Shown: positions 3,903-35,000, numbered from the stretch's first letter. The stretch is 64,000 nt of DNA from Candidatus Altimarinota bacterium (GCA_027046965.1 JALTWR010000002.1:9537-73536); one strand, 5' to 3'. Program-made: numbers and translations. The notes: a model not told the origin generated them from the letters alone.

Positions 3903-6359
3903 TTAGTTTTCTCATCTTAGCTTAAATCCTTCTGCCCTTAGCCTATCTATCACCTGCCCAAAAAAATCTTCAAAAAATCCCTTTTTCATATCTTTAGGAG
4001 CTACTATTTTTAGGGTTAGCGTTATACTCTTTTTACCCTCAGGAACTCCTCTACCTACATAAATATCTTTAAGATAAATTTGCTGAATAGGTTCCATAGA
4101 TTGCAACAAATCTATTAACTTCTTCTCATCCTCTGTAAGATCAATTACAATACTCAAATCCTTGTAAAATATATTATCAGATAATGTAAGGATTTGCGGA
4201 TGTGCAGGAGTATTTAATATATCTACTATTTTTTGTATGTCAAGTTCAACAATACCTACTTGAGCTCAGTCCTCAAATCCTAGTTTAGAAAGGGTTATTG
4301 GAGACAATGTACCTAAAAATCCTATTTCAATGCCATTAACTGTGATCATACCAAATTGCTTAATATGAAAAAAGTTACTAAAGATATCACTTTTTTTGTA
4401 TCACACATCAGCATTATTAACCTCTAGCCTAGTTAGAATTCAGTCAATAAGCGATTTAAGATGCAAAATAGGGCTATCCTTAAAAGTTTCGCTATCTTTT
4501 TGATACCACAAATAAGCTATTTTACGATATTCTTTTTGATCTTGCCAAGCTCTACCAATATCCAAAATTCTAATTTGCTCAAAATATCTAAAGTTTTTTT
4601 GTAGTACCTCAATTAGTGATAAAAACAAAAATGGCCTTAAATATGTAGAAGTTGGATCCAAAGAATTTATTATCTTAATTACTTCTTCCAAATCTATATT
4701 AGCTATTTCCAACAGTTTTTTGGAAACCCAGGGATAAGTTTCAACCTGATCAAAATGAAAATCTCTAACGCCGATATCTACCAGCTCTCTTTCAAGCTCA
4801 AATACTTTATCAATAGGATGATATTTTATTTGCTGGGTAGGAAGATGGTTTGAAATCTTATCATATCACCATATTCTCCCTATCTCTTCTGCTAAATCAG
4901 GCAAGATATTAATATCCTTAAGAGATCTAAACACTGGTACTTTAACTGTACTCCCTTGTATTTCAAATCCTAGTGCTTCCAAAATTAAATCCATTTTGGG
5001 ATAAGGTATTCCTTCAGATACTCCAAAAAGGAGTTTGTTTATCTCTTCCCTAGAATAATCTACTACTTTTTCAGGATTAAAACCTTCTAGATGCCAGCTA
5101 ATACCATTTAATTCATAATTACCTAAATCTTTTTTATAAGTTTTTAATAAGTCCAAAAATAAAATTAAAGCATAAGCTGAAAAGTTTGGATTAGGGGATT
5201 TTTCAAACCTAACCTGTGCATCTGTCCTAAGCCCCAGTCTCACTCAAGTTCTTCTAATTTTAACAGGATCAAAATGGGCAATCTCCACTGCTATGTTTTT
5301 TGTCTGAGAAGTAATTTGGGAGGATTCTCCTCATATAATTCCGGCTAATGCTAAAATCTTTTTTTCATCTGCAATAACAATATCCTCCGAAGATAAAGTA
5401 TGTTTTTCTCCAGTAAGATCTACAAATTCTTCTCCATCTTTAGCATTTCTTACTATAACCTTTCCTTCAATTTTATCAGCATCAAAAAAATGCACCGGCT
5501 GAGAAGTCAAAAACATAAATAAATTTGAAAAGTCTACCCAATTATTTTTGGGAATAGCTTTAAGATCGTACAAAGATAATCTAGTCAAAAAGGACGACTT
5601 TTTTATGGTAACATCCTTGATATGAACCAAAATATAAGTTTTGGCATCTGGAGTTTTTACATCCACTCCAATAGGTCAACCAATAGAACTATGTAATAAT
5701 TCTATCAGATTAGTATCTCTAAATTGCGCAAAAATACCTGGTAATCCATTGAATTTAATTTTAGTAGAATCTAGCAAACGATATATTGCGTTTAACTCTA
5801 CTCCTATTCCTAGGTGTCCAAAAAGGTCTGGCCTATGTGTTAAGGTTTTGTTATCCACCTCAAATACAGTAGATTCTAACCAAGGATATTTTTTAACCAA
5901 AGGAACTCATATATCAGACTCATCAATATCGTCAAAATCCTCATCTAAAATCCAAATCCATTTTTGTTCTTCGTCTTCTGGGATACCTAACTCTGATTTT
6001 GAACAAATCATTCAATTAGAGCTGATCCCTCTCATAGGCTTTGATTGAATGGTGATATCTATCGCAGGCAAAAAAGTACCATCTACAGCCACGGGAACAA
6101 ATGCTCATTCTCTAAGGTTAGTAGCACCTGTAATTATTTGTAAACTTTCTCTCCCTATATTTATTTCACACACCCAAAGTTTATCTGCATTTGGATGCTT
6201 GGTTATTTTAATTACTTTGCCTATTATTACACCAGTAGGAATCTGACGAGTCTCATATCACTCTATCTCACAGCTTTTCAAAGTAAGAAGATCTTTAATA
6301 TTTTGAGGAGAATCATCCACACTTATAAATTTTTTTAAAAGTCAACTAGAAAAATACAT
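3903..6359 (-). CDS. pheT: Phenylalanine--tRNA ligase beta subunit
   Basis: Five same-frame track ORFs (3912..5900) plus an N-terminal tRNA-binding domain: MYFSSGLLKKF...KVIKITKHPNADKLWVCEINIG. B3_4/B5-like segments are present (MRLGLRTDAQVRFEKS) and the C-terminus is FDX-ACB-like. The track stop at 3912-3914 is TGA; the real TAA is at 3903-3905. Confidence 0.9.
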
Positions 6360-6401
6360 CAGCCATATTCAATTTATTCAAGTAAAAAACTAGATGTATC
6401 A

Positions 6402-6429
6402 GTTATAACAAAAGATTATTTTTTTTCAA
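6402..6429 (-). promoter_or_regulatory. Putative sigma-70 promoter for pheT
   Basis: On the minus strand: TTGAAA (6424-6429), a 16-nt spacer, then TATAAC (6402-6407). This sits about 43 nt upstream of the pheT ATG and downstream of the hairpin plus U-tract that ends the GC-rich RNA. Confidence 0.3.
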
Positions 6430-6431
6430 CT

Positions 6432-6680
6432 AAAAGGAAACCCCACCCGGGGTACCGAGCGGGGGTGATCCGTCGGCACCCAGGGCGGGGTGTTCCCCTT
6501 AATTATGAAAGTGACGTTCGTATTTTATCCACCTTCATAGTTAAGAAGATTACCCTGGGTGCCGACGGCTTGTCCAAGCGGCTCCTGAGGTCAGGATCAC
6601 CTACTTGGCAAGGAGGAATACCTCCATTTACGCCATCGGGAGGCTACCGCGTCCTGGTGGACCATCCCTTTAGCGTTGAT
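6432..6680 (-). ncRNA. Structured GC-rich non-coding RNA, class unresolved (strand tentative)
   Basis: A GC-rich island in an AT-rich genome.
- Perfect 16-bp helix: 6470-6485 CCGTCGGCACCCAGGG pairs with 6553-6568 CCCTGGGTGCCGACGG.
- A nested 16-bp helix, 6498-6513 with 6530-6545, has one wobble and one mismatch and a 16-nt loop.
- Side hairpins: GGGGTGTTCCCC (6487-6498) and GGAGGAATACCTCC (6612-6625).
- On the minus strand the element ends in a GC stem followed by TTTCCTTTT. Confidence 0.55.
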
Positions 6681-6802
6681 TATATATTAATCACCTTTTA
6701 AAAATAAACAAAAGCTCAACTTAACTTTTTAGATATTAAATTTATGATATTTGACTATTGCCACAGCTTTATATAAAATATGCCCTAAATGCTACCTATA
6801 AG

Positions 6803-7723
6803 CTATCAACTTAATTTGTTTTTCAAAAATTCTACTATCGTAGGATCATTTTTATCTACTGTTAAACTGAGATGTGGATAAGATATAGAAATATTATGTT
6901 CATCCAGTGCCTTTTTAATAGCTTTGTTAACCCTAGATTGTATAATACCTACCGCAGCCTCAAAATTAGCAGGAGCAAAGTAAACCACTTTAAACACAAC
7001 TCAAAATTCGTTAAATGCTGATACTAACACAGCAATATTTTCTAGCTTTATTAGACCTGGAACTTTCCTAATAGCTTCCGATACTATTTTTTCAATTTTA
7101 TCAATATCTTCTAGGTGAGAGACACTAAAAGAAGAAGTAAGTCTAATAAATTCCTCCGAAGAAAAGGTTTTTAGAGGATTTGTGATCAAATCAATATTTG
7201 GAACAACCACTTTTCTCAAATCCAACAACTTCAAAACCGAATATCTCACGTTTATTTCCTCTATCCTTCCCATATATGAATAGTTGGGTGTTACAATCTC
7301 TATAATATCTCCTATTTTGAACTCTTTAGTGGTAAGTACCAAAAGTCATGCTACAAAATTTTCTAACAATTGCTTAAGGGCAAATCAAATACCTATAGAA
7401 AGACCTCATAAAAATATGGATAAATCTATTCCAACCAACGAAAAGGCTATCACAAAACCTATAGTAAATATAACATAATAAGCAATATTTCACACTAAAT
7501 CTGCCACCTTATAAGCGTGTTCATCCTTTCCCACAATATTAGATTTGATAGCTCTAGAAATCCTTTTAGATATTACAACTCATATCACATAAAAAACAAC
7601 AAGCACTACAATAGCTCCTCCAAACCCCAAGACATACTTAATCACCAAAGTTATATAGTCCTGAACAGCACTAGCTTGCTGTCCACCTCACACCTGTGCT
7701 TGGGCTAAAACCTTATTAAACAT
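6803..7723 (-). CDS. mscS: Mechanosensitive ion channel, MscS family (306 aa)
   Basis: Same-frame ORFs 6806..6997 and 7001..7342 plus a TGA-joined N-terminal TM region: MFNKVLAQAQVGGGQQ...GIDLSIFLGGLSIGIGFALKQLLENFVAGLLVLTTKEFKIGDIIE, which is the typical MscS core. The real stop is TAG at 6803-6805. Confidence 0.8.
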
Positions 7724-7730
7724 TTTTAAT

Positions 7731-8555
7731 TTATTGTAGAGTAAAAGTAAGCCAATTAAATGATTTAACAGGCGCTATTAGATTTAACTGCTTATATAAT
7801 ATTTTATTCATCTCAGAGAGAAATATCAATATTGGGACTTGCCTTTTAACCAATAAGTATCTATATACAGGGACTTTTAACTCTATGTGGATACTAGATG
7901 CTTCAAAGCTCTTAACGTTTACTAACACATTCTCACAGTCTATAAACTCCTTAGTAGTATTTTGTTGACAAATTATCTTTTTAAATTGAAGCTCAATTTC
8001 ATCAATTCTAGAAGAATACTCTACCGGCATGACTATCTCATATCTATGAATTTGCTGATATACTGCCACTGCATTTTTCAAAAAAGAAAAATTATCGATC
8101 AAAATCCTATGGTTATCAAAATCCCTTAACACCACAAAAAATACAGTAAAATCTTCGATAGTAGCAGGTATTTGCAAAGTAGGTATGTCCACTATATTTC
8201 ATATTTCAAAATTAGTGTTTTCAACAATTCGCAAAAAACTAAAAAAATTTCTCAAAGGTAAATCCAAAAAAATTCCCAAAAAAAGTCCTATAGTACCTCA
8301 CAATATAGCAACACTTCCTCCCCATAACCCCAAAATTACAACAAAGGTAACAACAACCGTTAAAACAAAAGGTAAATAGTACATCAACCACCAAAAATCT
8401 CAACTATAATCATCAACTTTAGAATATTGGTTTCGAAGCCATTCCTGAAAATATTTTCCAAATCTCAAAGATAAAACTTTACCCATCCCTCGCCCAATTA
8501 AAAATAGTACGACAGAAAGTATAACTTTTAAAATGTAAACTATTACAACTTCCAT
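7731..8555 (-). CDS. MscS-like mechanosensitive channel paralog (274 aa)
   Basis: ORFs 7731..8192 and 8400..8588 are in the same frame and joined by TGA. TM helices are followed by ...FLRIVENTNFEIGNIVDIPT (MscS beta-domain-like). The start is taken as ATG 8553-8555, 8 nt after the upstream stop. Confidence 0.65.
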
Positions 8556-8563
8556 CTTATTAC

Positions 8564-11500
8564 TTAAGTAGCTAAAGACTGTTCTCACTGAGATGGATAA
8601 TTAGCTCTATTTCTATTGTTACCTTGTTTCAATTTCTCTAATCTCTGGCTTATCCATTCATCATCGGTTCTTATTTCAATTCACAAAGCATCTTTTAAGA
8701 AATCAGCAATATTTCCCAACTTATCTCTCTTTAATCTATCCCTTAACAATCTTTTAAAAGCCTCTATAGCATCTTTAACCTCTCAAGGCAGTTTGTTATT
8801 ATATCTCCTGAGGAATACCCCCAAAGTAACTTTATCAAGAAGAGCGTCGCATTCTCAATTAAAAGTGCCGTTTTTTTCTAAACAATAATAAATTACAGCT
8901 CCTAGATCTTCTAGCCCATCAGATGTATATACCCTTTCTCCAAACCACAGAGCATACTTTTGTAATATAAACTTCATTGTCTCTTTTTCTTCTGTAGCTG
9001 GATCATTAACACCTTCAAATCATTTTTGCACACTCTTCCAAATATAGTGAGCTTGTCTTTCTTTATTAGGTGCAAAAGCACCTGTATGAGGATTTATAGC
9101 TAATCACCGCTGAACCATAACATAAGGTCCCTGAGCCCAAACATTCTCCAAAAATGGCGATTCTGGATCCATCAGATTTTCAAATATACTCTTTCATATT
9201 TCTGCCTGATTAGCACGCTGCAAGTAAGCCTCTATAGCACTCAATTCTTCTTCCTCCAGTGGCGAAAGCTCCCCTCTTTGTTTTCTTTCCTGATACCTAT
9301 ACCTTATTTTCAACAATGAACTTTCTTCATCCAAATTTGACAAAAGCAACACCCTTTTTAGCTGTTTCCCATATTCAAACCACCGATCTCGGTATTTACC
9401 TAGGATTTTATTGAAGTGTTTCGAAAAATTTTGAGGACTAATATTCTCCGGACTCCAATCAGGAGAAGCAAAACTACTAAAAGGCGGGATTCATATATTC
9501 TTAGCTATAGCATCCAAAAGCCTGACAAACCTAACACTACCCTCATAATCTATAATAAATCAATGAGCAGGAATACCAAAAGTCCTTCATAACTTCACAT
9601 AGTCGTCCAAAATATCACGAGAAAAATGACCAGACACCGGTAGACCAACTACCAAAGGAGCCAAATATGCACCTAAAGAGATATCTCCCTCTTCTTCTAT
9701 AGTTGCCTTGCTTAATAATGCCTTAAGTCCTCACAAAGCCTCCGCAACCTTCAAATCTCCAATATTTCATCTTACATCTTCAAATATTCCGGCAAAGGAT
9801 ACTGAAGAAATATTTTTGGAATATTCATCTACACTAGAGGAACTACGAGAAGCACCAAATGTCTTGATAAAGGCTTTAGGGAATTTACTACCAAATACAT
9901 TTTTAGATTTTTTATCCTTTTTAAGATTTTCAAAAATATAAACTGATTCCAAATCCCCTAAATCCTCAATTAATTTACGATTATCAGGATTGTTAGCTAA
10001 TTGTGACAGTTGCGAGTTATATTTTGCCTTAAAAGCCTCCCAATGTTTTTCTCATAATATTAATCTTACCCACACACCTTCTGAAGCATATTTGGCAAGT
10101 GCTTTTGGATACAAACTACCACCTCATCAACTTTCTGCTACAAACATTAAATATCCGGCTGCTTTCAGTTTTTCTCTGAGCGATTTTATTTCCCCTTTGG
10201 GATACTTCAAAAATAAATCTCTCTCTACTTTTCTTAGCGCTTCTCAACTGTCAACTCCTCAATCACGAGATAATAAATCTTTGTATTTGTTTATAACCCC
10301 CCAAATCTTGGAATCATACTCAGTAAAAGCATCAGCAAGTACATCTTGGAATGCTGAGCCCAAGGCTTTACCCATAAACTTAGAAAAAGCATTCTCTAAA
10401 GCCAAATAATGAAATTTTGTAGCATCAAATTCTTCCCTTTCTTTGATTTGAGCCATCCAGGCATCCCAAATGCTTTTCAATCATCCACCTATAGCTCATA
10501 TTGAAAACCACATTATTCCTCTCCCAGGCTTATGTATGCCTTGAGGAGTTTCTATTTTTTGAAATAACTCAAACTGTTCATATTGAGATTGAGTGTATCC
10601 TTCAAAACCGTTGTATCCTACCCACAATAAAAAGGAATCATAACTCATACTAATAGTAGTTGCCTTTTGTCCCCCAGCTGGAGTTATATGAACAAAATTA
10701 TTATCAAAGGAAACCTCAAATAATTGATAAAAGTCTTTGCCTCATTTTTTAGTAGGTCTTCCTACATATTTTACCTCTTCTCCTTGAAACTCTCCGCTCT
10801 TAAATGTTACCCTTCCTCTTTCCCATTTTGTCATTTTTTTCCACCAATCAGAAATCTTTTCACCTATTTTTTTATAATCATTTTTAACCTCCCACTCACT
10901 TAAATATCTACCACTTTCAACAAAATTGGGTAACTTTCTCATCTTAAATATACTAGAACCCATACTATCTTTGATATTATTAAGTCACAGAAATAATCAT
11001 CTAGAATCCACCACTACTTCTCTAGAAGCTCCATTCACAGTATCAGTAAAAGGAGTAATAATAACCCTATAAGAATTATCATCTATTTTGACAATATTAA
11101 TTTTAATCCAATCGAAAAAGCCTGCCTTTTCAAACAGAGAATTTCAACTTCATTTTGGTCTTCAAGCATAGTGAAACAATACAATCCCCTCTCAGTTTTC
11201 TAAATCTTCAAGTCTAGCATGAATCTCTCCAGAAAATTCAGATAAAATCCTTTCTGCTCTTTCTAAATAATTAGTGTCACTTTCCATATCCTGACTCTCA
11301 GTTTCATTATCTCATTGAGAAGGTTGTTGAGAATCCTCAGAAAATGGTTGCTCTTCCTCTTTACCATCTCCTCACTGAGATATATGCCCGTCTTGGGTGT
11401 TCAAAAGGAACTCCCCTAGCAAGTCTGTGCCCCTTACCCTACTTAAAAGATCTTGTATATCATTTATTGATATATTAGACTTAAAGCTAAGAAAAATAGC

Positions 11501-13306
11501 CATTAAAAACAGATCTATATCGTCTCAATAAAAAGAATCAAATCATTCTAAAGATATTTTTTTCTCCAATATATTAAGATTTTGTATCTTAGACCATTCA
11601 ATTTGTATTTCTTTATCATCAGTACTACTAGGATCCTTAAGTATCAAAACATAATCTATTGTTCAATTATCAGAAGGAAGCTCAACAACACCTCTCAAAA
11701 TATATTCCTTTCAATCTATTTCTAATTTATACCCATCCCGAAGTGTTACATCCTGTATTGCTCAATTTGATGGAAGAGAATAAACCTTTGTAGGGTAGAT
11801 TAATTTTAGTATATTTTCAAGTATATTGTCCAATCACAACTGTAATTCTACTCCTACCTTAGCATCTTTTATCGCCCATACTCAATTTTCCCTAAATTTT
11901 TCTTTGGATATACTTGTCGTATAAAGATGCCTTTTTTTTATTTCAACTTTTATATTCACGCCTGGTATTGTTATCTCTGTCACATTAGGATCATATATAT
12001 CCCTAACAAACTTATGCAATAGATCATATTGATTATCATCTATCCCAAATATCTCTTTAATTCTCTTTTCAAAATTAATATCATTAAACTTCCTATCTAT
12101 TACTTCCTTTAGCCGTAATTCCCATAATACCTCATCCTCCACGTTTCATCCTTCATAGTACCTTTGCAAAAAGTCAGCAAAGTCAGCATCTATGGAATGT
12201 ATATATTTAAGTTGTCGCTCAAAGTACTTTTTTTTGATACATACATAATTATTAGTTGGACAAGCTTTTATAACTTCCTCTCTTATATCTTCTACTATTT
12301 TTTTATTCCCAAGTCACACTAGGTCCCCAAAATAAGCTTCCCAGCTACCATTAAAGGGAACTAATATATCTTTACCATATCTTTTTTTCAAATGTTCAGA
12401 GATACTAGCCAATTTTGAACTGATCTGTGGAAGATCCAAACTACGTTGTAAATTTATCAAAAGCCCTTCTTCTGCCTCATTGATCTCCTCTATTATATCA
12501 GCAGCTGAAACAATACCCAATCTAACTACAAATTTAGATAACTCTTTTTTTATGATATTTTCTTGCTGCTTCAAAGCTTGACCAATAGAGTAATCTAGAC
12601 GATGGGATAAAATATCTGTTTTATTTAGAATATCCCCTATTGTAGGAAATCAGTCGAATATGGTATCTAAAACCTTTTTGCGTTGCTGAGGGGAAAGAGA
12701 GTTTAGAACATTCTTAAGATCATCTCAGATACCGTCAGGAATAGAGTCACTAAACCACCCTCTAATACCAGCTAAAGAGATAAAAAAATCTTCTATATAA
12801 CCATCCTTGAAATCTTTAGCTTTTAAACCTTCATAAAAAGAAAACACGCCTTTAATATTTTGGCATATCGCCTCTTTTTGATTAGGGTCCAAATCTGCCA
12901 AATTATTACAATTAGCTTCAATCTTTTCCCTAATAGAGTCCACAGTAGCCCAAAATAGTTTTTTACGAAGTTCTTGCTCTCCTACATCTTTAAATATTTC
13001 CTTCAACTTATTCAATGCTTCATAGGAAGTTCATATTTTAAAAAGCTTGAAGTTTTCAATAGAAAGTTTATCTACTCACAAAATTTTTTCCAATTCGGAT
13101 ACTATTTTTTTCAACTTATCTTCCTCCCTAGCATATTCCAAAAACCTTTTAAAACATCATTGAAAATCCCAATAACAATCATTTTTATAAAGCCACTCTT
13201 TGAATCATCAATATAGGCTTTCCAGTAGCTGTTTACTCACATCTAATCATCAATGCTGGGGATTGTCGCTTTTCTGTGATTCGAGATTTTTGGGTTGCTC
13301 GCTCAT
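8564..13306 (-). CDS. Giant hypothetical protein (1580 aa), no recognisable domain
   Basis: Six track ORFs (9767..9952, 10259..10480, 10742..10963, 11882..12142, 12314..12574, 12725..13015) all share one frame. I hand-translated 8564-9770, 12143-12316 and 13015-13306 and found only TGA interruptions. ATG at 13304-13306 (MSEQPKNLESQKSD...), TAA at 8564-8566. I saw no signal peptide or TM segment. Confidence 0.75.
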
Positions 13307-13380
13307 CCAAAAAATAATAAAATATCTAAAAACTAATAATATTTCCTTAAAAAATTATACTTTTTTCTCATTTTATTGTC

Positions 13381-13418
13381 AAACAAAAAGACCCAACGCT
13401 TTTGCAAGCACTGGGTCT
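13381..13418 (-). terminator. Rho-independent terminator after the pilin-like gene
   Basis: Minus strand: AGACCCA-16 nt-TGGGTCT followed by TTTTTGTTT. It lies between the pilin-like gene end (13455) and the giant gene start (13306). Confidence 0.5.
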
Positions 13419-13454
13419 TTAAATTCAAAAAATTATACATAATAGTATCTGCCC

Positions 13455-13844
13455 TTACTGAGTAGCCAATCCAATAATATAGAAAATAATACTTATCACA
13501 AACCAGCTAACACCTATCAATATCAAACCTATACCAGCTTGTTTTAAAATTTTAAATCCATTTTGATACTTACCATCTTCACCAGCTGCAGTAACCATTT
13601 GGAATCCACCCCAAAGCAAAACAAGTAATGCTATAAATCCTAACAACGCCAAAATCCAATTAACAGCATTTTGGATAACTCTCAAAAGCCCTTCTCATTG
13701 TAAAGTTTCTGACCCTGGCAAATTAGGATTTGCTGTAGTGTTTTGCCCAAAAAAACCTCCAGCATTTTGTGCATAAGTAACTATAGGCAATGCTCCCATC
13801 AAACCTATTCCCATAACCCTTAAAGCAGTCTTTTTAATAGACAT
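13455..13844 (-). CDS. TrbC/VirB2-like pilin-type small membrane protein (129 aa)
   Basis: Signal peptide MSIKKTALRVMGIGLMGALPIVTYAQN. Two hydrophobic helices follow (ILALLGFIALLVLLWGGFQMVTAAGEDGK...AGIGLILIGVSWFVISIIFYIIG). This architecture is typical of T4SS VirB2/TrbC pilins. Confidence 0.6.
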
Positions 13845-13889
13845 CAGATTAAATTATATTATATAAATTAAAAAGCACTTAAAGTTTAA

Positions 13890-14990
13890 TTATTTGGCTT
13901 GATTTTGCAAATTTATTTTACGCAATTGTTGCCAAAGTTTCTCTTCTTGAGGAGTTAACCTCTTTGGAATCTTTATTTGTGGCAATATAAGAAGGTCTCA
14001 CCTGTGATTTCCTAAAATACCTTTTGCTCCAAATCATTTTCCAGGCACCTTAATGATTTCCCCTTCATTTAATCCTTTAGGAATTTTTATCCTTAATTTG
14101 CCTTCTGGATGCTCAACTAAGATCTCTCACCCCAATACTGCATCATATACACTAATTGGAATTTCTAGTAGTAAATCATCTCACCTTCTCTTGTAAGGCC
14201 CCCAGTCCACAACTTCAATTTTAACAAATAAATCTCCAGGGTCAACATCTTTTGCTGGCCAATGTCACATTCCTGGATATTTTATTACCTCTCCGCTTTT
14301 AATCCCTGCAGGAATTTTTACTAATAAAGTTTCATCCCTCATAACCCATCATTTCCCTCAGCATTTAGGACACGGTGTCCAATTGATATAACCCTTCCCT
14401 CAGCATTTAGGACAAGTTGTTTTAACTTGAATTCTGCCAAAAGGAGTTGCCTGAACCTGGATAACTTCTCATTTCCCTTCACATACAGGACAAATTTTAG
14501 ATTTGCTATCTGGAGCGACACCTGTTCATCCACACATATCACATGGAACCTTTCTCTGAAAAGATATTTCTCTAGAAGTCCCTTTATAAGCTTCTACAAA
14601 AGGAACTTGCAGTTGGATAACAATATCTTCACCTCTTTGTTTCTTGGTTTTGCTGGAGCCTATTCCTCCGAAAAAATCTCCAAATACATCAAAAATATTA
14701 TCAACATCAAATCAACCAAATCATCAAGGTCCACTGAATCAGCCAAAATCAAATCCTCCAAAACCTCATTTTTTAAAAGCATCATATTGGGCTCTTTTGG
14801 TATCATCACTTAAAACCCCATAAGCTTCATTTATCAATTTAAATTTCTCCTCTGCCTTTTTATCTCCCTTGTTTCTATCTGGATGGTATTTCATAGCTAA
14901 TTTTTTGTAGGCTTTTTTGATTTCCTCTTTAGATGCCTGAGGTGCTACCCCCAAAATTTCATAATAATCTTTATTAGGATCAAAATCCAT
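13890..14990 (-). CDS. dnaJ: Molecular chaperone DnaJ (366 aa)
   Basis: J-domain: DYYEILGV...[16 protein letters not shown]. It is followed by a G/F-rich region and four CxxCxGxG zinc-finger repeats (CDMCGGTG, CPVCEGKG, CPKCGGKG, CPKCGGND). Several of the conserved Gly are TGA, for example 14525-14527. Confidence 0.95.
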
Positions 14991-15017
14991 GATCTTACTT
15001 CTTAAAATTATAAAAAT

Positions 15018-17357
15018 TTATTCTACTACTAGATTTATTTTACCTTTTAATGGAGTCTCTCAAGCAAAATACACCTTTGCCTCAATCACATAATTACCTG
15101 GTTTATCGAATACTTGAGAAACTCTGATATACTCCCTACCCTCCCCTTCAGCTACTTTCTCTCAATTTATAAACCATTCAATTTTTTGAATATCTCACTG
15201 AGTATCAATAGCAAATTCTACTATTTCTCCAACTTTAGCAGTTTGTAAAGGATGAGAAGGTGAAGTTATTTTAACTTGAGTCAAAGGTTTTTGAACAAAT
15301 ATCAATGCCTTAGCCTCTGCTTTTTGTCATTTTTGTGTCTCTACAACCACTTTAGGTTGATATCTTCATTTTGTCTCAGGAGTCCATACATAGGTGTGAT
15401 ATACAACTCATCTAGCGGTACCCTCCAAGTCTGGGGTGTTATCTCCCCAATACCAATAATAACGAATAATCTTATCCTCAGGATCTAGAACCTTAGAGGA
15501 AGTGGCATCCAATTTTACTTCCAATGGCGAATCTCCAGATTGAGGATTTACTTTTAATACAGCTTTTAATGAAGGAGCCAATGCATTTAATACAAATTCT
15601 TGAGTTCCTCTAATATCTTCTCCTTCAAAACTAAATTTGTATATATATTCTCCAGGATTAATAATATTATCTTTAAATTCCTTTTCATCTGGATAAAGCA
15701 AAGTAGCCAGTTTAATAGTTGTTCAATCTGGATTTATACGCTCTATACTTAATACTCATTCCTGATTTGGAATAATATTTTCTATCTGAAACACCAATGA
15801 AGCAGGTATTGACTTAAGATTCACTTGATTATCATTTACACGCAATGGCACCAACTTGTTTTTTTGCTGATAGTACACACTTAAATTTACATTGATTCAT
15901 TCAAAAGTAGCAATAGGATCAGATTCACAATTCACTTTTTTTTGTGATATTTCATCAACTCCTTCATATTGTAACACATATTTTTTACCTTCTGCTAAAA
16001 ACACAAAGGTAGTAGTTTTGTTACCTAACTTTTTAGTAGTATATTTCCCATTAGATTCATCTACAATTTTGAGTTCCCCATTTAAAAAACCTGCACCATC
16101 AATATCTACCTTATACCTTTTATCGCCTAGCTTAGAAATTCTGATTTGACACTCCCCATTAGCTGCATTTTGTCCTTGAAGCAAAAATGAATAAATGGTT
16201 CAATTTATTTTAAATCTTACAGGATATACCTTCAATCCCTCTTTATATTCCCAAGTTAGAGGAGATTTAACATTCATCTTATCCCATCTACCATCCCCAT
16301 CAAAATCCCAATCTAGCTTTACATCTGCCAAACGTAAAAACTTTAAATTTTCTGGAGAAAACAATATTTTAGCTGGAACTTTGCCTATATCTATCACTGG
16401 CTTTCAGGATATTACATGATCATAATTATTCAAAAGGATACGTTTCTTGTTATCTAACCTAAATAATGAAATATCTGCTGGAATTGACAAAATATCTTGA
16501 GTTACAATATAGGGGTCTACAGTTATTTCTCAATTTTTAGATCTCAACATATTCATTCTAACAGTATAGTCTCATTTTGATACATAAAAACATTGATAGG
16601 TGGGAATATACATCATATCCTGAGGCAACTGATTTAGATTAACCTCAAATCTGTTACCATTACCACAATCTATCTGGAAACCAACTATTTCATTTGGAGA
16701 TTCTATATTTTTCAGTACTTTGGGAAGGTAATTTTGATTGTAAGCAAAGCCGATACTTAATGGAGCAACCAACCCAACCTTACTAAAATCTCACAGCTCC
16801 TTTGCTTTAGGGTTATTGGCTCAGTCCTCATAAGATATATAATAAGCACCTATAATACCTTTAACACTGGACATAGCAGAATCTATTTTTGCAATTCTAC
16901 TTAACACTATATATCCAACTGTGATATCTATTATCAAAAGTAAAAAGCCCAAAAGCAACATCATCATAAAAACTCACTTTCTTTTGGATCTACTAAAAAC
17001 CTTCACTAAGTTGACTACGATCATTAAAAAAGCAACAAAAAACAACAACCCGAAAAAGGTCCATCAGAAACCTTGTAAGAGTCACTTGGCAGCTGCTGGA
17101 GAAAGTCATAAAGCATTTAAGCTTTCAGGATTATTAACTACAGAAAAAAGTATAACAAACAATATCATCACTGTAAACAAACCTAAGCCCAAACATCCAC
17201 CAACCACCATACCAACTGATAAACCTTTACCCTTTTTGACCTTTGATGAAGGGACATTCTTTTTGGTAGCTTTTTGCAAATTTTGGTTTTTTGAAGCTGA
17301 GATTTGCGGCCTTTCTCCTTCTGGTTGAGATGAGGTCTCCAAAAAAGGATCTTTCAT
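15018..17357 (-). CDS. Membrane-anchored surface protein with PKD-like repeats (779 aa)
   Basis: Five same-frame ORFs (15408..17357). N-terminal basic tail plus TM (GLSVGMVVGGCLGLGLFTVMILFVILF). PKD-type motifs LDWDFDGDGRWD and YYWYWGDNTPD are present. Stop TAA at 15018-15020. Confidence 0.8.
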
Positions 17358-19011: not shown

Positions 19012-22000
19012 TTATGAATTAGATAAAGATCTAAAAAATGTTTCTATCTTATTTGTTCATACTACCGCTTGAGTTTGTGCCAACCTGTCACGTTTACGCT
19101 CAAAAAACTTATTTGTCTGGTAATTAGAATAATCACCGAATTCAATTCTACCTAAATCAATCACATTTTTTGTGGGCTCTGTTTGCAAAGCTACTCTCAC
19201 CCTCCAAAAAAAGTTAGTTTTATTGTTGTATTTTGATATCATAGTATTAATATACTCTATTAAATCTATTGCTTTAAAGGGATTGCTTATAGTTTCTTCA
19301 TAAAGGTTTACAAATTGAGATTTTTGATCAAAAGGCAGCTTATCAAAGGCCTCTTTTCCTTCAGGAGAACTTAAAACTTGATCAATTCCTTCCACGACAT
19401 ATCTTGATAACTTAGCAGTAAATCATTTTAATGATTCTGAAGACAGTTTATTATTAGATAAATCTATTTTAAATTTTTGAGCGAAATCATCTGGACGTCA
19501 AACCATTTCTCAAAGATTTACTATTTTATGTGCCCATTGAGCTAATAGATTTTTATTAGCTTCGCTCATATCACTTCCTTTGGCTATCATTAATGTTTCC
19601 TTCCTAGTAGGATCTTTTACTACTACTTTTACTCATCAATCACCAGAGATATAATCTAAATCTATATTTGTCAAAGGAACATCATCAAAATCTTGAGGCC
19701 ACTCATTATTTATTTTCATACTTGCCTGAATACTATCTTCATAATAATTAAGTGTTTCTGAAGCTCTTCCCTGTTCTTTAAGTTGTTGGACATGCTCTAG
19801 CTGAGTTGCATTAATACGCTCTACATAAAAGTTCCAATTAGCTTGAACTTTATCTGCTGCCTGTTGTATTTCATCAAGTTCATTTATCTTTTTAAACCAT
19901 TCATTATTGACAAAAGCATTTATTTTAGATGCCAATGAGGAATTAGATAGTTTCAGATATTCTGGATTTACAGCACTTATATCTGCTTTCAAAAGCTCAA
20001 ATTCTTCGCCATGGTTCTCAAAAATATATTTTTCAATATCCTCCTCTCCCATCTCCTTTCACCAATGTCTAAGATCAGCATCTGCTCTCCTCCGGTAATC
20101 TACAAAAAGCTGCTTTAAGTTTGACCTATCAGGATTTAAGTTTGAAATAACATATACCAGTAATGATTCGTCAGAATTCAATCCTTTTCAAACTAAAGCC
20201 TCTATATATGCTTTTAAAATATCTTTGGATGTAAGCTTGTTTTTATCCTCGGCAAATTTTATAAAATTGGCTCTAACAGTAGGGGAATCTTCTAAAGTCA
20301 AAGCTTTAGCAGCCATAAGTATCTTTATTTCCTTGAGATTCTTTGGATCTTTTAAATAATCCAAAAAGTTACTTCTAACATAATCCTCATCTAATATAAT
20401 ATTTAACATACCTTGAGAAGAATCCTTAAAAAGCATCTCTCAAAGTTTTTTTAAATTACCTTCAGAATTGGCCAAACTTCCTACAAAATACTCAAAGAAT
20501 CTTTCATGGATATCTACAATGTTGTCTGCAAGCCAATCAGCCATATCACCTCAACTCTCTAAACTATCGAACAGTGCTTCCCCCAGAGACATTTTAATTA
20601 AATAGTCCAGCTGCTTTATTTCTTCATAATTCATATCATCGAGCAACTGTACAATTTTAGCCTTATCTTTTTCAGCCAGAAAATCTACCCCTAAAAATCT
20701 ATAAATATTTTTGAATCTCTGTTTTTTCTCTGCTTCTAACTTACGCTCCACCCTATTAGCTTCAGATTCTGGAGAAAAACCTCAACTTATCTCAACCATG
20801 TCGGTTACAAACTTATAGCTATCACCGCCTGATAGCAAAGGATACAAATAGCTTTCAAGCTGTTGCGGTTCTAATACTATACCTGTTTTTTTATTGGATA
20901 TATCATTTAATGTAGCAAAAAACCTATTTTTAAAATTATCATCTTCCCTTTTAAGTTTGCCAACAAATAACTTTATAAAACTGCTATCCATTTGCATAGG
21001 AAAAGTTGCATACACAGCTCCTAAAATGCGTTGCTGCATAAGTCCATCTTTGTCTTCACTATTATCCCAATAGCCCTCCATACTACTTAGATATAACTCG
21101 AAATCACCTAACCATTTTAAAGTCACTGGGTCAAAAAAGTCAAGAATCTCAAATTCTTGTGCCTTTCAAATATTTTCAATAATTTCCATCATGCTTGTCC
21201 CATCATACACATTACCAAACTGACCAACAATAGAATGCTTGTACCAATATATTCTTAGATCCTCTCCAAGTTTATCATAACTTCCCTCCTCTTCACCAGC
21301 TGTTGCAACAATTGTTTCTCTAGTATTGCCAGTAGGCTTTTCAGTAGAGTGTTTGGCATTGGCAAGCCATAATCGAGTCTGAGATCCCAAAGAGGACTGC
21401 CGATAAAATGATGAGATCTCATCGACTTGATCTGCTGTATTTGCAAAATTTGCTATACCTTCCTTAGATATTTCCAAAAATGCTTTTCTTTGCTCTGGAG
21501 AATATGTTTTTAACTCCTCCAAAACAACTTTCAAAAATTGATCGTAATACTTTCCATAAGGAGGTAAATTTATTTTAATAGCTAGATTATCAAATATCTC
21601 CCTTATTTCTTTTTCAAAATCTTCAAAATTTTCAATATCATAAAGATCCTCTTTGGACGAACCTATAGATTCATAGTCGGTACCCATTTTGTAGATTCCT
21701 TCTAGTTCTTTCCAGCCTATATTTTCTAGTTTACTAATTTTATCCACAATTGAAGAAATCTCATTATCATTTAATCTTAAAATATAAGACACAATACCAT
21801 CTAACCCCTCATACATACTACCCATATTTTTATAGTCTATCCTTTTTAAGATCACCTCAAGCAAATCTCTTTTTTTTCACTCCAGTTTTTTTAGAGAAGT
21901 ATTTATTTTAGTTTTAAAATCTTCCCAATTAATACCACCATCTCCAAATCAATATACTAAGTTGTTGTATTTATTTACTTTATCCAAAAGTTGTCTTTCA

Positions 22001-22107
22001 ATATCAGTCTTAAGACTGTCGTCTTCTACAGTCCTATCTTTTGATTTACCTAAAAAATCCTTGGGACTAAGTATTCACTCTTCAAAATTGGACTCAGCTA
22101 GTCTCAT
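19012..22107 (-). CDS. Large hypothetical protein (1031 aa), acidic and helical, no recognisable domain
   Basis: Six same-frame track ORFs (19057..21864). I translated the N-terminal extension by hand (MRLAESNFEEGILSPKDF...) from ATG 22105-22107. The stop is TAA at 19012-14, after read-through of TGA at 19057. Confidence 0.75.
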
Positions 22108-28006: not shown

Positions 28007-30946
28007 TTACCAGCTTTGCTTTTGAACCTCTTCCAAAAGATCTAGCACTCCAGGAGGCGGTAACAGCCAGAGTCTTGGATTAGTTATGACTTTCAAAGAT
28101 GCACCTTTTACTATTAACTCATAAACATTAAATGTGGAATTCCATATATTTCCCAAGATAGACCTACCGTTTTCTGTAAGAGTAACAATGCCATTTCATA
28201 TTAGGATACCTTTCACTTCTAGATCTCATCTTTTGGACCAACTCTTGTTTAAGTCATCATTGCGAATTCTAGTTTTTTGGAAGCCATTCTTTGCAATATA
28301 TATACCTTCCACTTGTTGCAATACATCTGTATTTAATGGGTCAAAAACAATGGTTCAATTTACCAACCACATACTGGAACCCTCAATGTCTCATTGAATC
28401 TTTAAATTTCCATCAATGATAAAGGTTGTAGGTTGGCCTAAACTAACATCTCCAAAGACCACATCCTCTGCAGTATAATATATTTCTGCTCATCTAGCTT
28501 TTTGCCACCTTACTCCTCATAGTGAAATATCCGATCAAATAAATATATACTTAGTTTTCAGTTTTCATATAGATTCTTCGATCTTATTTGCATCATAATT
28601 TGCAACGGTTATCAACTCTATATTGTCTTTTTCTTCTGTAGATAGCATAGAAGTTCAATCTATTTTTTTGAAATCATCGAATTTTTCATTTTCCGTAGTA
28701 GAAACAAAGCTACCAAGTTGCATCATATAAGGCCTTGTTACTACAAAATTCATTAAACATTCCCTTCCATAATCATTAGAAGGAGCCCAGTTAGCTGAAG
28801 CAGTTGCCCACTCATAATATTCATTACCATCTTCATCGGTATACTTTTGACATACCTTGGTTCATTTAATATCTTCAAATTTAATCTTATATTCACCATA
28901 TGTACTTAAACCATTTAATTTAACTCCAGCCAGTCCATCTTTATATATCCAAAACAAAGAGTTCTCCAATCAGTAATCATTTAAAAAGTCTTTAAGTAAG
29001 TTAGCACTAGACAGTCTAGTCATATCAGCATTAAAGCAGGACTCTTCCAGTCTCTTAACAATCCCTCCATTACCATCAACTATATCAAAATAACATTTTA
29101 GACTCCTTCTTTCCCACTTACCTAAATTATCCTCATTACATCCTCCATCTGCTATATTATTTCAGAGAGTATTTTTGTCTACCTTCCACCAAAAGAACAG
29201 ATATTCATTTGACATAATTGATGGAGGATCCACCCATGCACATAATGGAGCTCTTTCACTTACAAGTTTACAATCTGAAGTACACCATATAGCATTCTTA
29301 GTAGGTTCACCGTTCTCATCAACTTCTGACGGATCACATTCCTCACCATTTCCGGCTTGTACTATACCATCTCCACAATAGCCTCATCAGCCTCAACCTC
29401 ATCAACCTCAGCCTCTCCTAACTAATTCCACCCTACATTGAGTAGGAGCGTCTGTATACTTCAAATCAGCACTAGCATTAATACTACACCATATATAATC
29501 AGGAAGATCTGTATTATAACTACCTGATACAACATCCTCGCTTGTTCAATTTACAATATTTTCAGCCAATATCCTTTTGTCTGTACCAGCACTACTATCA
29601 GCTTCATAAACTCTAACAACACTAAGAGTCCCCTGTCATTTACATTCAAAATATACTGTCTGATCTCATTCGAGTTCTAATCTAGACACTTGCTGTAAGT
29701 TATCTTTTGATACCCCTACCTTAAGATATTCACAACTAGCAGGCTCCCCGCCTCATCAGCCTCAACCACCACCTTCACTCCTAGAAGCACTACATGATGT
29801 AGCACTACCACCTATCTCACATTGCCAACTTACAGATTGACCAGGCTGAGGAAATGGCACAGGATAAGGATTAGGATCACCTACTTCACAAAAATAACCT
29901 GTTCCTGTTTGAGGCCAGTCACTAACATCTGAACCAAAGTTTTGTCAGTTAGCAGGTCCACATCTTGGCTGATCTCCAGGATTAGCTTGATCATATACTG
30001 TTACAGAAGCCGTACAAGTTGAAGTAGGTCTTACAACTCAGTCGGCTATTGGAGAGATATTGTTTTGAACTGTTGCTTTTAATATGAAATTTCCTGTTTG
30101 AGAATAAGTATGAGTCAGAGGGAAAGATGGGTTATCAACTATATTGGAATCTCACAGATCCACCATCACATATTTTGCCCAATCTTGAGTAGTAGCGTTT
30201 ATTGTAGTCGTCAAAGGAACGGTTCCTGAAGGTGGATTGGGAGATAATGTACAAGTCGGTGTTTCAAGCTGACATGTAGAGCTACAACCATCTCAATTTA
30301 CATTATTTCAATCATCACATTGCTCTCAGTTATCGGCATCAACATTTCAGTCTCCACAAAAATGAATGTATATATTAAAACATTCGTTTTGAGAATATTG
30401 TATATCACCCCATATTCTTTTAGTTTGATCCTCTAATTGATACTCTTTATAGCTACCATTTTGAAATCTGTAATAATAATAATTACTTGTTTGTCACTGC
30501 TGTTTACCTTTTTCTCTCTTGTAAGCAATCTTATATACTATTTGTGCATCAGGTAATGAAGCATTCACTCCTTTTTGCTTATAAAGTGTACATCCCTCAC
30601 TTCATACTACTACCACATCATTTATGCTACCTACTTCCGTTTTAGAGGGGACCACATTAGAAACCCTATACCAGTAGCCACACCCCATAATAGAATCTGT
30701 ACCATTTTCCCAAATTGTAACACTTGTTTCCTGGTTTCTTATAAAAAGCGTGTCAGAAACATTGGAAATCAAATCTATAGGATAAATAGTCTTAGTAGTA
30801 CTATCAATATAATAATGAGCATCTACATTTGCTTCTGTACAATTTTGCTCAAAATCTCATACGTTTTGGGTATATGTAGTTTGAATAGCAAAGGTGAAAG
30901 AAATCCAAAAAGGAGTTAAAAGAAGTAATTTATAAAGCTTACTCAT
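28007..30946 (-). CDS. Secreted protein (979 aa) with two Myxococcus-type cysteine-rich repeats, a PKD-like module and poly-Gly linkers
   Basis: The track shows no standard-code minus ORF of 60 aa or more here, yet the code-25 frame is open over 980 codons.
- Signal peptide: MSKLYKLLLLTPFWISFTFAIQ.
- Cys-rich repeats: [33 protein letters not shown] and YCGDGIVQAGNGEECDP...CTSDCKL.
- C-terminus: ...PPPGVLDLLEEVQKQSW, stop TAA at 28007-09. Confidence 0.8.
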
Positions 30947-32066: not shown

Positions 32067-35000
32067 TTATTCATCTATTGGAGAACCCGTAGGCCTAGGT
32101 GGAGGAGAAGGAGCGGCTGTAGGTTTAGTAGTAGGTACGTCTGGAGAAGGAGGAGTAGGTGTTGGAGAAGGGGTCGGAGGAAGTGTTGGTCACTCAGTAG
32201 GCTTTGTAGTAGGCTGTTCTTTCCTTCTTTCATGTGGTTTACGCTCGTAATCCACACCTCATATAGCATAAAGCCAATCCATTCATTGATCGGGAACTAC
32301 ATCTATCGTATTAAGTTCACCTCCCTGAATTTGGTCTATAGCAACTTCCACTTTCCCTATACTTTTAACTGTAGATGGAGTTTTGGATAGTTCTCCTTTA
32401 AAATATACCCATCATCTGGCGCTTTGTCCATCTGAAGCAGCTGTCAAAGTAGATTCTTGCAATAGTCTATATCATCTGGTGGCAATATTTATCTCAGCAT
32501 CTCTTTTTCCTATCGTATTTTCCTTCTTGGCAATCACTACCTTCTCCACACGGTAACCAACCGTAGGATTAATACACTCACCATAAAGATAATATACTGG
32601 TTTGCCATATATTCTTAATTTTACCTCTCATCTAACTAACTCTTTCCCCATAAATAACTCAAGAATTTCCTCCTTAGATGAAGTGTTCACGTCCATATAT
32701 TGGTCAATTCAATAGTTTTTTAATACAGATTTTAGCAAGTCTTGAGGCATTTTTTCTAGTATTTTTCTAGACAATACCAAATCATTCAACTCAACAACCC
32801 TTCATTCCAAAACATCACCAAATCCATGAGGCAAAAGAGAAAAACTCTCTTCCTTTGATCTTTTCGTATATACCAAAGAAGCTACTATACTTTCATCGTA
32901 TGCTCTATTAGATGAAGATACATCTATCTTATCAGGATTAATAGAGCTGACAATATTGCTAAGTCTATTTGCTATATCTTCTCCCCAATTTACCTTTATA
33001 TGGTTAACAAATCCTTCCTTTTTAATTTCTAGCATCTCCCTACCTATACTTTCCTTAGTTTTTTGATCTATATGTTTTCATTCTAAATCTTCTCCAAGCA
33101 AATATTCATCGGTCAATGTCCCTTTAACAAATAATGCTAATGCATAAACTAGAGCTTCTCTATCTAAAGATCTTATCCTTTGCATGATATTATCTGTAGA
33201 GCTGATTCATAATTCTTTAGCTTTGGGACTATCTAACATTTTTTGAAGATTATCAACTGCAGCTGACCAATTCTGCTCTTTGTAAGCATTAATAAAATTA
33301 TAGTATTCATCAAACATATTTAATTTCGCCAAAGCTAACTTGTGCTGATCCACAAATTTTGAAATGTCCTTAACTTTGTCTAAAGACTCAATTTTGGATG
33401 GAGCTAGTATTTCGTATTTCCTCTCAAAGTCAGACATAACTTCCCCTGAAGCAGTTTGCTCCAGATTAACATAAACTAGCTGCAATGGATAGCTTCACAC
33501 CTCATAAGTTATCTTAATTCAATCTGGTCAATTAAAAACATTGATATCTCATCTATGAGATGGAATGACCAACTTACCATCAACTATTTTCAAATTTTCA
33601 TCTAAATCTGCAGACTTAACATCTATTCATAAGACTTTTGAAAGACTAGTTAAATCGATAACAACTCCATCAGATGTTATCTCTATCCCATTTTTTAGTT
33701 CTTCTGGGAGCTGCAAACTGTCAGCCTCATCTTGTGATTTATATATTTCAAATCAACTATTTTGAGTCTTTGAGGTGTCGCTCTGATAATCAAATTCAAT
33801 AATATCTTTGGTGCTTCCTTCCTCTACTGTATATGATATTGTGCCATCTTTTTTAAAGATAACAACCCTACTTCATAACGGAACTTCCTCACCTTTGATC
33901 TCAATAGTTTTATTTTTCTCATCAACTACCATATGCTCATTCAAAAATTCAACAGCTTCAGAAGGAAGATTTTCAAAGTTCCTAAATAATTTTTCTCCTC
34001 CATAAGACACCTTCTCAGGAGTATAAGAAAATATTTCAATATGAGTTTTACCATCAGCGGAATCATCAATCACAAGTTCTTTTATATTTTTCAATATTGG
34101 ATCTACCACTAATTGAATGTTTTTATTTTTTAATCCTCTTCTATACAATTTAACTTTTTCTGTATTTCCAAGTTCTTTTCCATTTTCTATAACTTTAACA
34201 AAAGGTGCTGTGATAAACAGTGATCAATCTTTACCAACCATAAACAAACCATACTTACCATTTTCTGGGCTATAAGATCTTTCACCCTTAAACAAACTCT
34301 CCAAAAACAATTTAGCCTCATCAGAAATATTTATTTGCGACAAAATTGTATCTTTAATCTCAATCGTTTCTCCTTGCTTAACTTCCACGCTCAACTTCTC
34401 TTCTCAAATCTTACCATACTTACCGTCAAAATTCAACAATTCCTTAAGCTTTTGAGGAGAAACTCACAATTCAGTTGCTGCATCTTTTAAATTTTTATCT
34501 ACACCAGCTTTAAGCAATCATGGCATCCATTTTATGTCTGTGGTTCAATAGTTTCATCTAATAGTTATTATTTTATCACCTACTTTGACAAACAAGGCAT
34601 TTTTACCAACCTCGGCGTTTCACACCTGCTTATACTCAAAAACTCCTCCAATTGTTTTCATCTCATCAAAAACTTTTTTTAAATCTTCAGGTTTTGATAC
34701 TATCCCCAAGTCTATCATATATCCAACCACCTCTTTTACTAGTTTGTCTGCATCTATGTTGTATCTTTCATTTTTATCAAAATCTAAATCATGCTCTTCC
34801 TCCCCCAAAAAATTCTTAACTCACCTAAGAGACAAAAATCTTTTTTTAAATTGTTGATACTCTCTAGTGCTCATAAGACTTTCCAAAGTCACTTTACTTG
34901 ATTCTGACAATACATCATTTAAGCTTTCTCATTTAACCCTCAAAGGTTTTACTATTTCTGCCTTCAAATTTGCCAACTCTTGTTGGATTTCTTCTGTGGA

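Follow-up and report, generated by a model that had tools for sequence, protein, structure and literature searches.

The 64,000-nucleotide (nt) stretch of Candidatus Altimarinota bacterium analyzed here (GCA_027046965.1, JALTWR010000002.1:9537-73536; the window) carries a minus-strand unit of three genes, in which a very large gene is followed by two genes for members of the MscS family of mechanosensitive channels. A first-pass annotation had proposed that the unit is an operon that pairs an orphan giant soluble protein with a divergent and a canonical MscS. The genes of the unit and the signals that surround it are listed below.

8564..13306, minus strand: giant gene, 1580 amino acids (aa), 180 kDa, isoelectric point (pI) 5.5, 46 in-frame TGA codons read as glycine
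7731..8555, minus strand: predicted divergent MscS-family paralog, 274 aa
6803..7723, minus strand: predicted canonical MscS, 306 aa
13354..13382, minus strand: putative sigma-70-type promoter TTGACA-17-TATAAT, 12/12 consensus match, read from the sequence alone
13387..13420, minus strand: intrinsic terminator of the upstream type IV secretion system (T4SS) pilin gene, with a 15-bp stem, a 4-nt loop and a T-run; 5' boundary of the unit
13455..13844, minus strand: T4SS-type pilin gene (PF18895 at 1e-13), directly upstream of the unit
6441..6464, minus strand: strong intrinsic terminator, 10-bp stem with 8 GC pairs, the first downstream of the MscS genes

The three open reading frames (ORFs) lie exactly where they had been placed, and the two short stop-to-start spacers are confirmed by the sequence as TAA-gtaataag-ATG (8 nt, giant gene to 274-aa gene) and TAA-attaaaa-ATG (7 nt, 274-aa gene to 306-aa gene). 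The hairpin previously assigned to 13381..13418 is a real terminator, with its stem and T-run at 13420..13387. The -10 hexamer of the promoter ends 47 nt 5' of the ATG of the giant gene, and this promoter is the sole 12/12 sigma-70 match among the promoter-like sites in 6000..15200. A sequence scan detects no terminator-like site between the promoter and 6464..6441. The 7-8 nt spacers and the single strong 5' promoter that follows the upstream terminator support the claim of one operon, and these signals make a three-gene operon a well-supported prediction. The three genes would accordingly be co-transcribed and translationally coupled. The window genes around the unit are housekeeping genes (DnaJ, PheT, sigma-70 and FtsA/Z).

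How is TGA read in this genome? Under translation table 11, the ORFs across 5000..16000 are short and broken up. When only TAA and TAG are treated as stops, the ORFs of at least 100 codons in the six frames of the window total 87 kb instead of 26 kb, and the longest one has 1597 codons instead of 279. In DnaJ (13890..14990), TGA codons occur both in the GGFGGF repeats and in the CxxCxGxG fingers, and the conserved glycines of the Gly-rich third transmembrane (TM) helix of MscS are encoded partly by TGA. In the alignment of the giant gene with its orthologue, 34 of 45 aligned TGA codons pair with GGN (25) or TGA (9) and none pairs with TGG, which itself pairs with TGG at 22 of 26 sites. Because TGA sites align with GGN or TGA and never with TGG, TGA encodes glycine (code 25). 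The ORF lengths, the DnaJ and MscS glycines and the codon alignment thus bear out the code that the first-pass annotation had assumed, and the 1580 codons of the giant gene run without an in-frame TAA or TAG. In public databases, most proteins of the source lineage are translated with code 4, which places tryptophan at TGA, and contain up to 7% tryptophan and less than 1% glycine. This code-4 translation weakened homology searches and hid the giant family from routine ones.

The giant gene is real because its orthologue in the related locus L001 is likewise stop-free (1592 codons) and because its ratio of nonsynonymous to synonymous substitution rates (dN/dS) against that orthologue is low, at 0.12 overall and ~0.04 over residues 900-1300, compared with 0.056 for DnaJ. 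Purifying selection acts on the gene, and the C-terminal core of its product is as conserved as housekeeping proteins. The protein can be divided into four regions.

11987..13306, minus strand: residues ~1-440, mostly alpha-helical N-terminal region, fast-evolving, 42-60% identity to the orthologue
11237..11986, minus strand: residues ~441-690, first beta-rich domain, with short helices and an acidic low-complexity linker
10532..11236, minus strand: residues ~691-925, conserved beta-rich domain (model strands 16-200), where family-wide homology begins
8807..10531, minus strand: residues ~926-1500, large all-alpha core, the most conserved part; predicted local distance difference test (pLDDT) scores mostly >80

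The boundaries of the N-terminal region are approximate and alignment-transferred, and its helicity is taken from a low-confidence AlphaFold2 model of the N-terminus of the family member P0007. This region holds a family-wide but weaker motif, L..L.R...F.DI, near residue 60-90. The least conserved part of the protein, at 36-37% identity to the orthologue, is residues ~441-690, which include the acidic linker (residues 641-690, pI 4.05). W822, Y847 and F892 are near-invariant in the beta-rich domain that follows. The all-alpha core reaches 87-91% identity to the 63%-identical orthologue (dN/dS ~0.04) and contains the motifs DSKIW, KD.LSRDG, LKAAGYL, Y.[KR].L..Y, FGSKF and RTFGIP.

The giant protein lacks a TM segment (maximum Kyte-Doolittle mean over 19 residues, 1.34) and, by inspection without a predictor, a signal peptide; its first 19 residues are polar, and it contains no hydrophobic segment anywhere. 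A cytoplasmic location is expected for such a sequence. Searches of Pfam, NCBIfam, PHROGs, PADLOC and PDB sequences return no significant match, and the PDB sequences yield nothing to either the single sequence or a 17-member profile. The family libraries give sub-threshold noise only (DUF4041, AbiTii and RevA), and the AbiTii match (E 0.031, 14.9 bits against a cut-off of 27.6) is not significant. No internal repeats were found in the protein and no tandem repeats in the DNA. The initial description of a protein that lacks a signal peptide, a TM segment and a recognizable domain is therefore borne out by hydropathy, inspection and library searches, and the latter reveal no homology to a known family.

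The description of the protein as an orphan is wrong, since it belongs to a lineage-restricted family. A word-indexed search of a 5.8-billion-protein database finds two close homologues only (96% and 61%). When the C-terminal 1195 residues of the orthologue P0002 are used as the query, an exhaustive HMMER search identifies 25 representatives at E <=1e-3, 16 of them at E <=1e-10. About 15 representatives are full-length (990-2215 aa) and align over ~500-870 residues at 24-31% identity, with E down to 1e-37. The window protein shares 63% identity with P0002 under code 25 (61-62% with P0002 as stored) and is scored at 1204 bits by the family profile. The C-terminal ~800 residues, which comprise the beta-rich domain at ~691-925 and the helical core at ~926-1500, are common to the family, and the giant proteins of different clades are only 16-26% identical. 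Nearly all representatives are Trp-rich and Gly-poor, a composition that marks code-25 genes translated under code 4, and 31-85 in-frame TGA codons are present in every family ORF whose codons were counted (8 loci). The named sources are Gracilibacteria metagenome-assembled genomes (MAGs), Candidatus Vampirococcus lugosii and one Peribacteria-labelled MAG that also uses sense TGA. The family is restricted to Patescibacteria in which TGA encodes glycine (Gracilibacteria and Absconditabacteria). Our literature searches found no description of the family, and a DUF7831 match is below the cut-off and limited to a P0010-specific insertion. A profile search of the 64-kb window detects no other family paralog and no further MscS gene.

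The Foldseek and AlphaFold comparison that the first-pass annotation had proposed was made on models of P0007, built from shallow alignments in which most rows carry TGA mistranslated as tryptophan. The C-terminal model (966 correctly translated residues, 14-sequence alignment) has a mean pLDDT of 73.6 and a predicted template modelling score of 0.55, and consists of a beta-rich domain followed by ~40 helices, mostly at pLDDT >80. The N-terminal model (790 residues, pLDDT 64.2) is helical with two beta-rich regions. In Foldseek searches, the C-terminal model matches nothing significantly in the PDB (best E 0.024, the remainder being generic alpha-solenoids with template modelling scores <=0.15) and nothing in BFVD at E <=1e-3. 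The N-terminal model retrieves from the PDB only weak, non-significant tandem Tudor, Agenet and SH3-like barrels. The alpha-solenoid and Tudor/SH3-like resemblances are not significant and were rejected as evidence. The fold of the giant protein is uncharacterized because no Foldseek match is significant.

The two downstream genes were assigned correctly as a canonical MscS and a divergent MscS-like paralog, given that PF00924 matches both products and PF21082 matches the 306-aa protein. In the 306-aa protein, PF00924 is found at E 2.4e-12 (47.2 bits, cut-off 20.2) and PF21082, the C-terminal alpha/beta domain, at E 1.3e-8 (35.6 bits, cut-off 21), along with NCBIfam MscS/MscK/MscM matches at 1e-18 to 1e-19. 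Hydropathy places TM1 at residues 33-51 and TM2 at 85-103, and the Gly-rich TM3 is FLGGLSIGIGFALKQLLENFVAG, in which two glycines derive from TGA; Pfam models of the TM helices match this protein only below their cut-offs. These features identify it as a predicted canonical MscS. The 274-aa protein has three TM helices by hydropathy and matches PF00924 just above the cut-off (E 9.3e-5, 22.9 bits against 20.2) and PRK10334 at 1.4e-8 over residues 4-228, far below the curated cut-off of 321 bits; Pfam gives no match to the PF21082 C-terminal domain. Its junction between TM3b and the beta-domain is degenerate, reading RNFFSFLRIVEN compared with the canonical Ala/Gly-rich ENFVAGLLVL of the 306-aa paralog, to which it is related only at about 1e-11. 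The 274-aa protein also evolves faster (dN/dS 0.13 against 0.056), and its homologues in the 5.8-billion-protein database are two only, both in the closest genomes. It is best regarded as a true but divergent MscS-family member that, as far as the sequences indicate, is limited to the window clade.

Is the linkage between the giant gene and MscS a property of this genome or of the family? Loci were collected from the contigs that encode the representatives and with a hand-built degenerate DNA pattern applied to genome and metagenome collections, where the scans reached only members with one motif spacing. Neighboring ORFs were called under code 25 and searched with the window MscS proteins. 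Of 16 evaluable lineages, nine, which share <50% identity with one another, have an MscS gene as the next gene downstream of the giant gene and on the same strand.

Linked: window clade, three genomes (window, L001 and L002)
Linked: P0007, locus L013
Linked: P0020, locus L014
Linked: P0009, locus L006; V. lugosii, 1321 aa, contig NZ_JAEDAM010000047
Linked: P0017, locus L015
Linked: P0012, locus L016
Linked: P0025, locus L017
Linked: P0010, locus L019; 2141 aa, two tandem MscS copies
Linked: P0011, locus L021; gap of 144 nt
Unlinked: one subfamily (P0019/21/23-like), loci L004, L005/L010, L011 and L012; convergent gene next
Unlinked: P0029; convergent gene next
Unlinked: P0016; unrelated partial ORF next
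Unlinked: P0018; GT2-like gene next

Giant-MscS spacers are 8-44 nt in most linked loci, the gap in P0011 being the longer one. The downstream MscS proteins are orthologues, matched by phmmer at 1e-38 to 1e-66 to the 306-aa protein (L006, L013-L019). Most relatives have a single MscS, and the two-channel arrangement is not general; the duplication in L019 is independent of, and parallel to, that in the window. The tandem MscS1-like ORFs of L019 lie at 12355..12975 and 13062..13964, the first copy having no called N-terminus (~550-nt gap). No MscS was found anywhere in the unlinked loci.

The closest two loci, L001 and L002, are collinear with the window over >20 kb, and adjacency among these three genomes is thus uninformative by itself. 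On a neighbor-joining tree, the linked members fall into four separate clades. The upstream neighbors vary between clades (DnaJ/pilin, peptidase M16, TatD, TrpRS or a GT4 glycosyltransferase) and so do the downstream ones (pheT, AMMECR1 or a VCA0040-like gene). Because the flanking genes are unrelated between clades, the giant-MscS adjacency has outlasted all other synteny. Synteny had been set beforehand as a check, and it is conserved here in nine lineages with unrelated flanks. Thus, the operon claimed by the first-pass annotation and the linkage that it proposed to check are both supported, the orphan status falls, and the gating or tethering role that it raised is conjectural; the pairing is also undescribed, as claimed, in the literature that we searched. 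Given that MscS genes number a few per thousand genes and that the other adjacencies have decayed, retention of the pair is best explained by selection for co-expression.

Gene pairs that are kept adjacent across otherwise rearranged genomes usually encode interacting or co-functioning proteins, and the giant protein probably works with the MscS channel. More specifically, the genomic association suggests, tentatively and at somewhat less than an even chance, that the giant protein is a cytoplasmic partner, scaffold or regulator of MscS within membrane or envelope homeostasis. The operon would supply two channel subunits of the MscS family together with a cytoplasmic 180-kDa protein, whose conserved C-terminal beta-plus-alpha module would bind to, or act beside, the cytoplasmic cage of the MscS heptamer. 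In this way, channel activity would be tied to the state of the membrane or envelope. The giant protein may thus contact the channel physically and influence its gating.

Several points weigh against this partnership. The seven evaluable members without a downstream MscS indicate that the giant protein can exist without an adjacent channel gene, and the association of the unlinked P0018 and P0029 with a GT4 gene suggests a core function that is not tied to a channel. The lineage sample is small and phylogenetically non-independent. Moreover, the structure models are of moderate quality at best (pLDDT 73.6 and 64.2), and the invariant residues of the family are mostly aromatic or aliphatic, which fits a scaffold and gives no mechanistic handle.

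The GT4 gene leads to the strongest alternative, in which the giant protein is a scaffold for envelope or membrane biogenesis that acts with GT4 and envelope enzymes, and MscS is merely co-expressed as part of an envelope or turgor response without forming a complex. Five lineages (P0025, P0010, P0011, P0018 and P0029), two of them without an MscS link, carry an orthologous GT4 glycosyltransferase gene (PF00534) upstream of the giant gene and in divergent orientation to it. The orthologues share pairwise identities of 34-48% (E 1e-65 to 1e-126), and their best NCBIfam matches are weak and far below the cut-offs (GlcNAc-phosphatidylglycerol synthase as the best, then TuaC and BshA).

L008, 8644..9777: GT4 gene
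L017, 4792..5865: GT4 gene
L019, 3840..5162: GT4 gene
L020, 4778..5860: GT4 gene
L021, 3647..4927: GT4 gene

A VCA0040-like (undecaprenyl-phosphate translocase-like) gene neighbors MscS in four loci of the V. lugosii-like subfamily (L006, L015, L016 and L017), sortase and peptidase M23 genes then follow in three of them (L015-L017), and the GT2-like gene after P0018 and the seven members without an MscS neighbor point in the same direction. The common theme of the recurrent neighbors is the membrane and cell envelope, and the ancestral arrangement of the family appears to be a divergent GT4 gene, the giant gene and then MscS. However, the 64-kb window contains no GT4 orthologue, yet its giant and MscS genes keep a 7-8 nt spacing. 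MscS is also the commonest immediate neighbor, with nine lineages against five for GT4, and in every case it follows the giant gene co-directionally and at a short distance, which is the usual pattern for subunits of one complex. We consider an envelope scaffold without a channel complex less likely than the channel partnership, although it deserves more weight than any other alternative.

The adjacency could also be a historical accident, namely an ancestral synteny that is passively kept in small, slowly rearranging genomes and has no functional meaning. The >20-kb collinearity of the three closest genomes and the loss of adjacency in several lineages would fit passive retention. On the other hand, all other neighbors have changed between clades, whereas the pair persists in four clades at 16-26% identity with spacers that stay short. 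Chance adjacency would be well below 1% per genome if one to three MscS genes are assumed among roughly a thousand genes. We give the accident little credence.

Equally improbable is a host-interaction factor that leaves the cell by non-classical export and takes effect at the cell surface or inside the prey, its linkage to a channel then being incidental or regulatory. Predatory Absconditabacteria, V. lugosii among them, encode many giant proteins, for which a role in attachment has been proposed (PMC8080830). The V. lugosii member of the family is 1321 aa long, however, and thus shorter than the ten giants of that study, which range from 1392 to 4163 aa (PMC8080830). Likewise, the N-terminal half diverges quickly, with 36-60% identity and dN/dS values as high as 0.4, but the C-terminal core is conserved like housekeeping proteins. 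A T4SS pilin gene lies just upstream of the unit in the window, but it is insulated by a terminator and a promoter; TraG/VirD4-like (TraG/DUF8128-like) genes occur within a few kb of the giant gene in L016, L020 and L021, perhaps as a coincidence in small genomes. The lack of a TM segment, the polar N-terminus (by inspection without a predictor) and the absence of adhesion-type WD40, TPR and PKD domains from Pfam searches of family members also argue against a surface role.

Three further ideas were rejected: a cargo-conduit pair, one of the options first raised, is implausible because the MscS pore, roughly 1-1.5 nm wide, could not pass a folded 180-kDa protein; a T4SS component is contradicted by the lack of a Pfam or NCBIfam match and by the terminator and promoter that separate the giant gene from the pilin gene; and for anti-phage defence, PADLOC returns no family for P0007, P0002 or the MscS paralog, and the neighbors are housekeeping genes.

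If the giant protein is a partner of MscS, how does the pair compare with known systems? The 306-aa protein resembles E. coli MscS/YggB (PF00924 and PF21082) in its beta-domain, C-terminal alpha/beta domain and TM3 (GGLSIGIGFA...AG), and the 274-aa gene keeps the three TM helices and the beta-domain. The E. coli channel differs in that the window has tandem paralogs, one of them divergent and without a detectable C-terminal domain, and in that both genes lie 3' of, and are probably translationally coupled to, the gene for a giant soluble protein. No giant partner encoded by a gene of its own is known to us for MscS, in agreement with our literature searches.

MscK/KefA, MscM/YjeP, YbiO and bCNG are similar in that an MscS core is accompanied by several hundred extra residues that are thought to modulate gating. 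The extra domains of these proteins are fused to the channel in one polypeptide and, in MscK and MscM, are N-terminal and periplasmic, whereas the giant protein is a separate gene product, delimited by stop codons and 7-8 nt spacers, and has no TM segment. It shows no sequence similarity to the extra domains in Pfam and NCBIfam, and the MscK/MscM model matches (1e-18 to 1e-19) cover only the channel part of the 306-aa protein. The MscS part of the unit is thus of an already known kind, and the separately encoded giant partner is new.

The ankyrin-repeat domain of NOMPC is the helical-repeat spring of a tethered mechanosensitive channel, and, like the giant protein in the proposed partnership, it is a large alpha-helical, solenoid-like cytoplasmic element associated with such a channel. 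This likeness is an analogy only, since the Foldseek matches are not significant (best E 0.024, template modelling scores <=0.15), the giant protein has no sequence repeats and NOMPC belongs to another channel class. The nearest documented precedent for the proposed contact is the binding of soluble FtsZ to the cytoplasmic domain of E. coli MscS (PMC4440785), in which a soluble protein engages the MscS cage in a role beyond osmotic release. In contrast to the present case, the gene for FtsZ does not accompany mscS, and FtsZ has no relation to the giant family; the giant-MscS contact is a proposal drawn from gene association.

The giant proteins reported from V. lugosii come from the same organisms and size class, and P0009 is encoded in V. 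lugosii directly upstream of MscS. The reported giants carry interaction domains of the WD40, TPR or PKD type and are predicted to lie in the membrane or at the surface (PMC8080830), whereas the giant family described here has neither TM segments nor such domains. The report of those proteins does not mention MscS (PMC8080830).

MscS ends at 6803 and pheT starts at 6359, and the 443-nt gap that separates them contains a GC-rich structured RNA candidate, which has the following positions in the window and in its two closest relatives.

6436..6682, minus strand: structured RNA candidate, ~245 nt
L001, 15662..15916: orthologue of the RNA element
L002, 8280..8533: orthologue of the RNA element

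The element has 54% GC compared with 33% for the genome and a minimum free energy of -125.8 kcal/mol (z = -8.07), and it ends in the strong terminator at 6441..6464. It is ~97% identical in L001, where the flanking proteins are only 63-88% identical. No Rfam family matches it at gathering thresholds or at E <=1, no tRNA or tmRNA is detected, and T-box, signal recognition particle and RNase P motifs were not seen by eye. On the minus strand, the interval from 6803 to 6682 contains no consensus promoter. The element may be a novel non-coding RNA, a 3' untranslated region element of the MscS operon or a pheT leader, and its membership of the MscS unit is uncertain.

Elsewhere in the window, a TraG/VirD4-like ATPase gene was recognized by reading of the sequence at 50526..53558 (minus strand), and three more large genes, at 19012..22107, 32067..35345 and 28007..30946 (all minus strand), have no obvious function. 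On reading, neither the 1031-aa product nor the 1092-aa product, the latter with a Pro/Thr-rich tail, has an evident signal peptide or long hydrophobic stretch. The 979-aa product is hydrophobic at its N-terminus and rich in Cys, and it includes runs of 8-11 glycines. The three proteins are unrelated to the giant family, as hmmsearch finds nothing at E <=1.

MscS channels are generally regarded as osmotic safety valves that work on their own and are gated by bilayer tension alone. Gracilibacteria and Absconditabacteria live attached to, or feed on, other cells, and control of turgor and envelope is thus likely to be central to them; cultured relatives exist (Vampirococcus and Absconditicoccus). 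In its fullest form, which is speculative and rather improbable as a whole, the partnership proposed here would make the giant protein a separately encoded cytoplasmic channel subunit, which would act as an alpha-solenoid tether or as a regulator docked on the cage and link MscS gating to the state of the envelope or of the membrane lipids, with GT4 as a third player. This would represent a tethered or accessory-subunit mode of MscS regulation that is unknown in bacteria and specific to epibiotic, TGA-recoded Patescibacteria. If the giant protein does work with the channel, the MscS class would gain a new kind of accessory component, namely a conserved and strongly constrained soluble partner of 150-250 kDa whose gene shares the channel operon. 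It would also give a first clue to the function of one of the many giant proteins that lack annotation in Gracilibacteria and Absconditabacteria.

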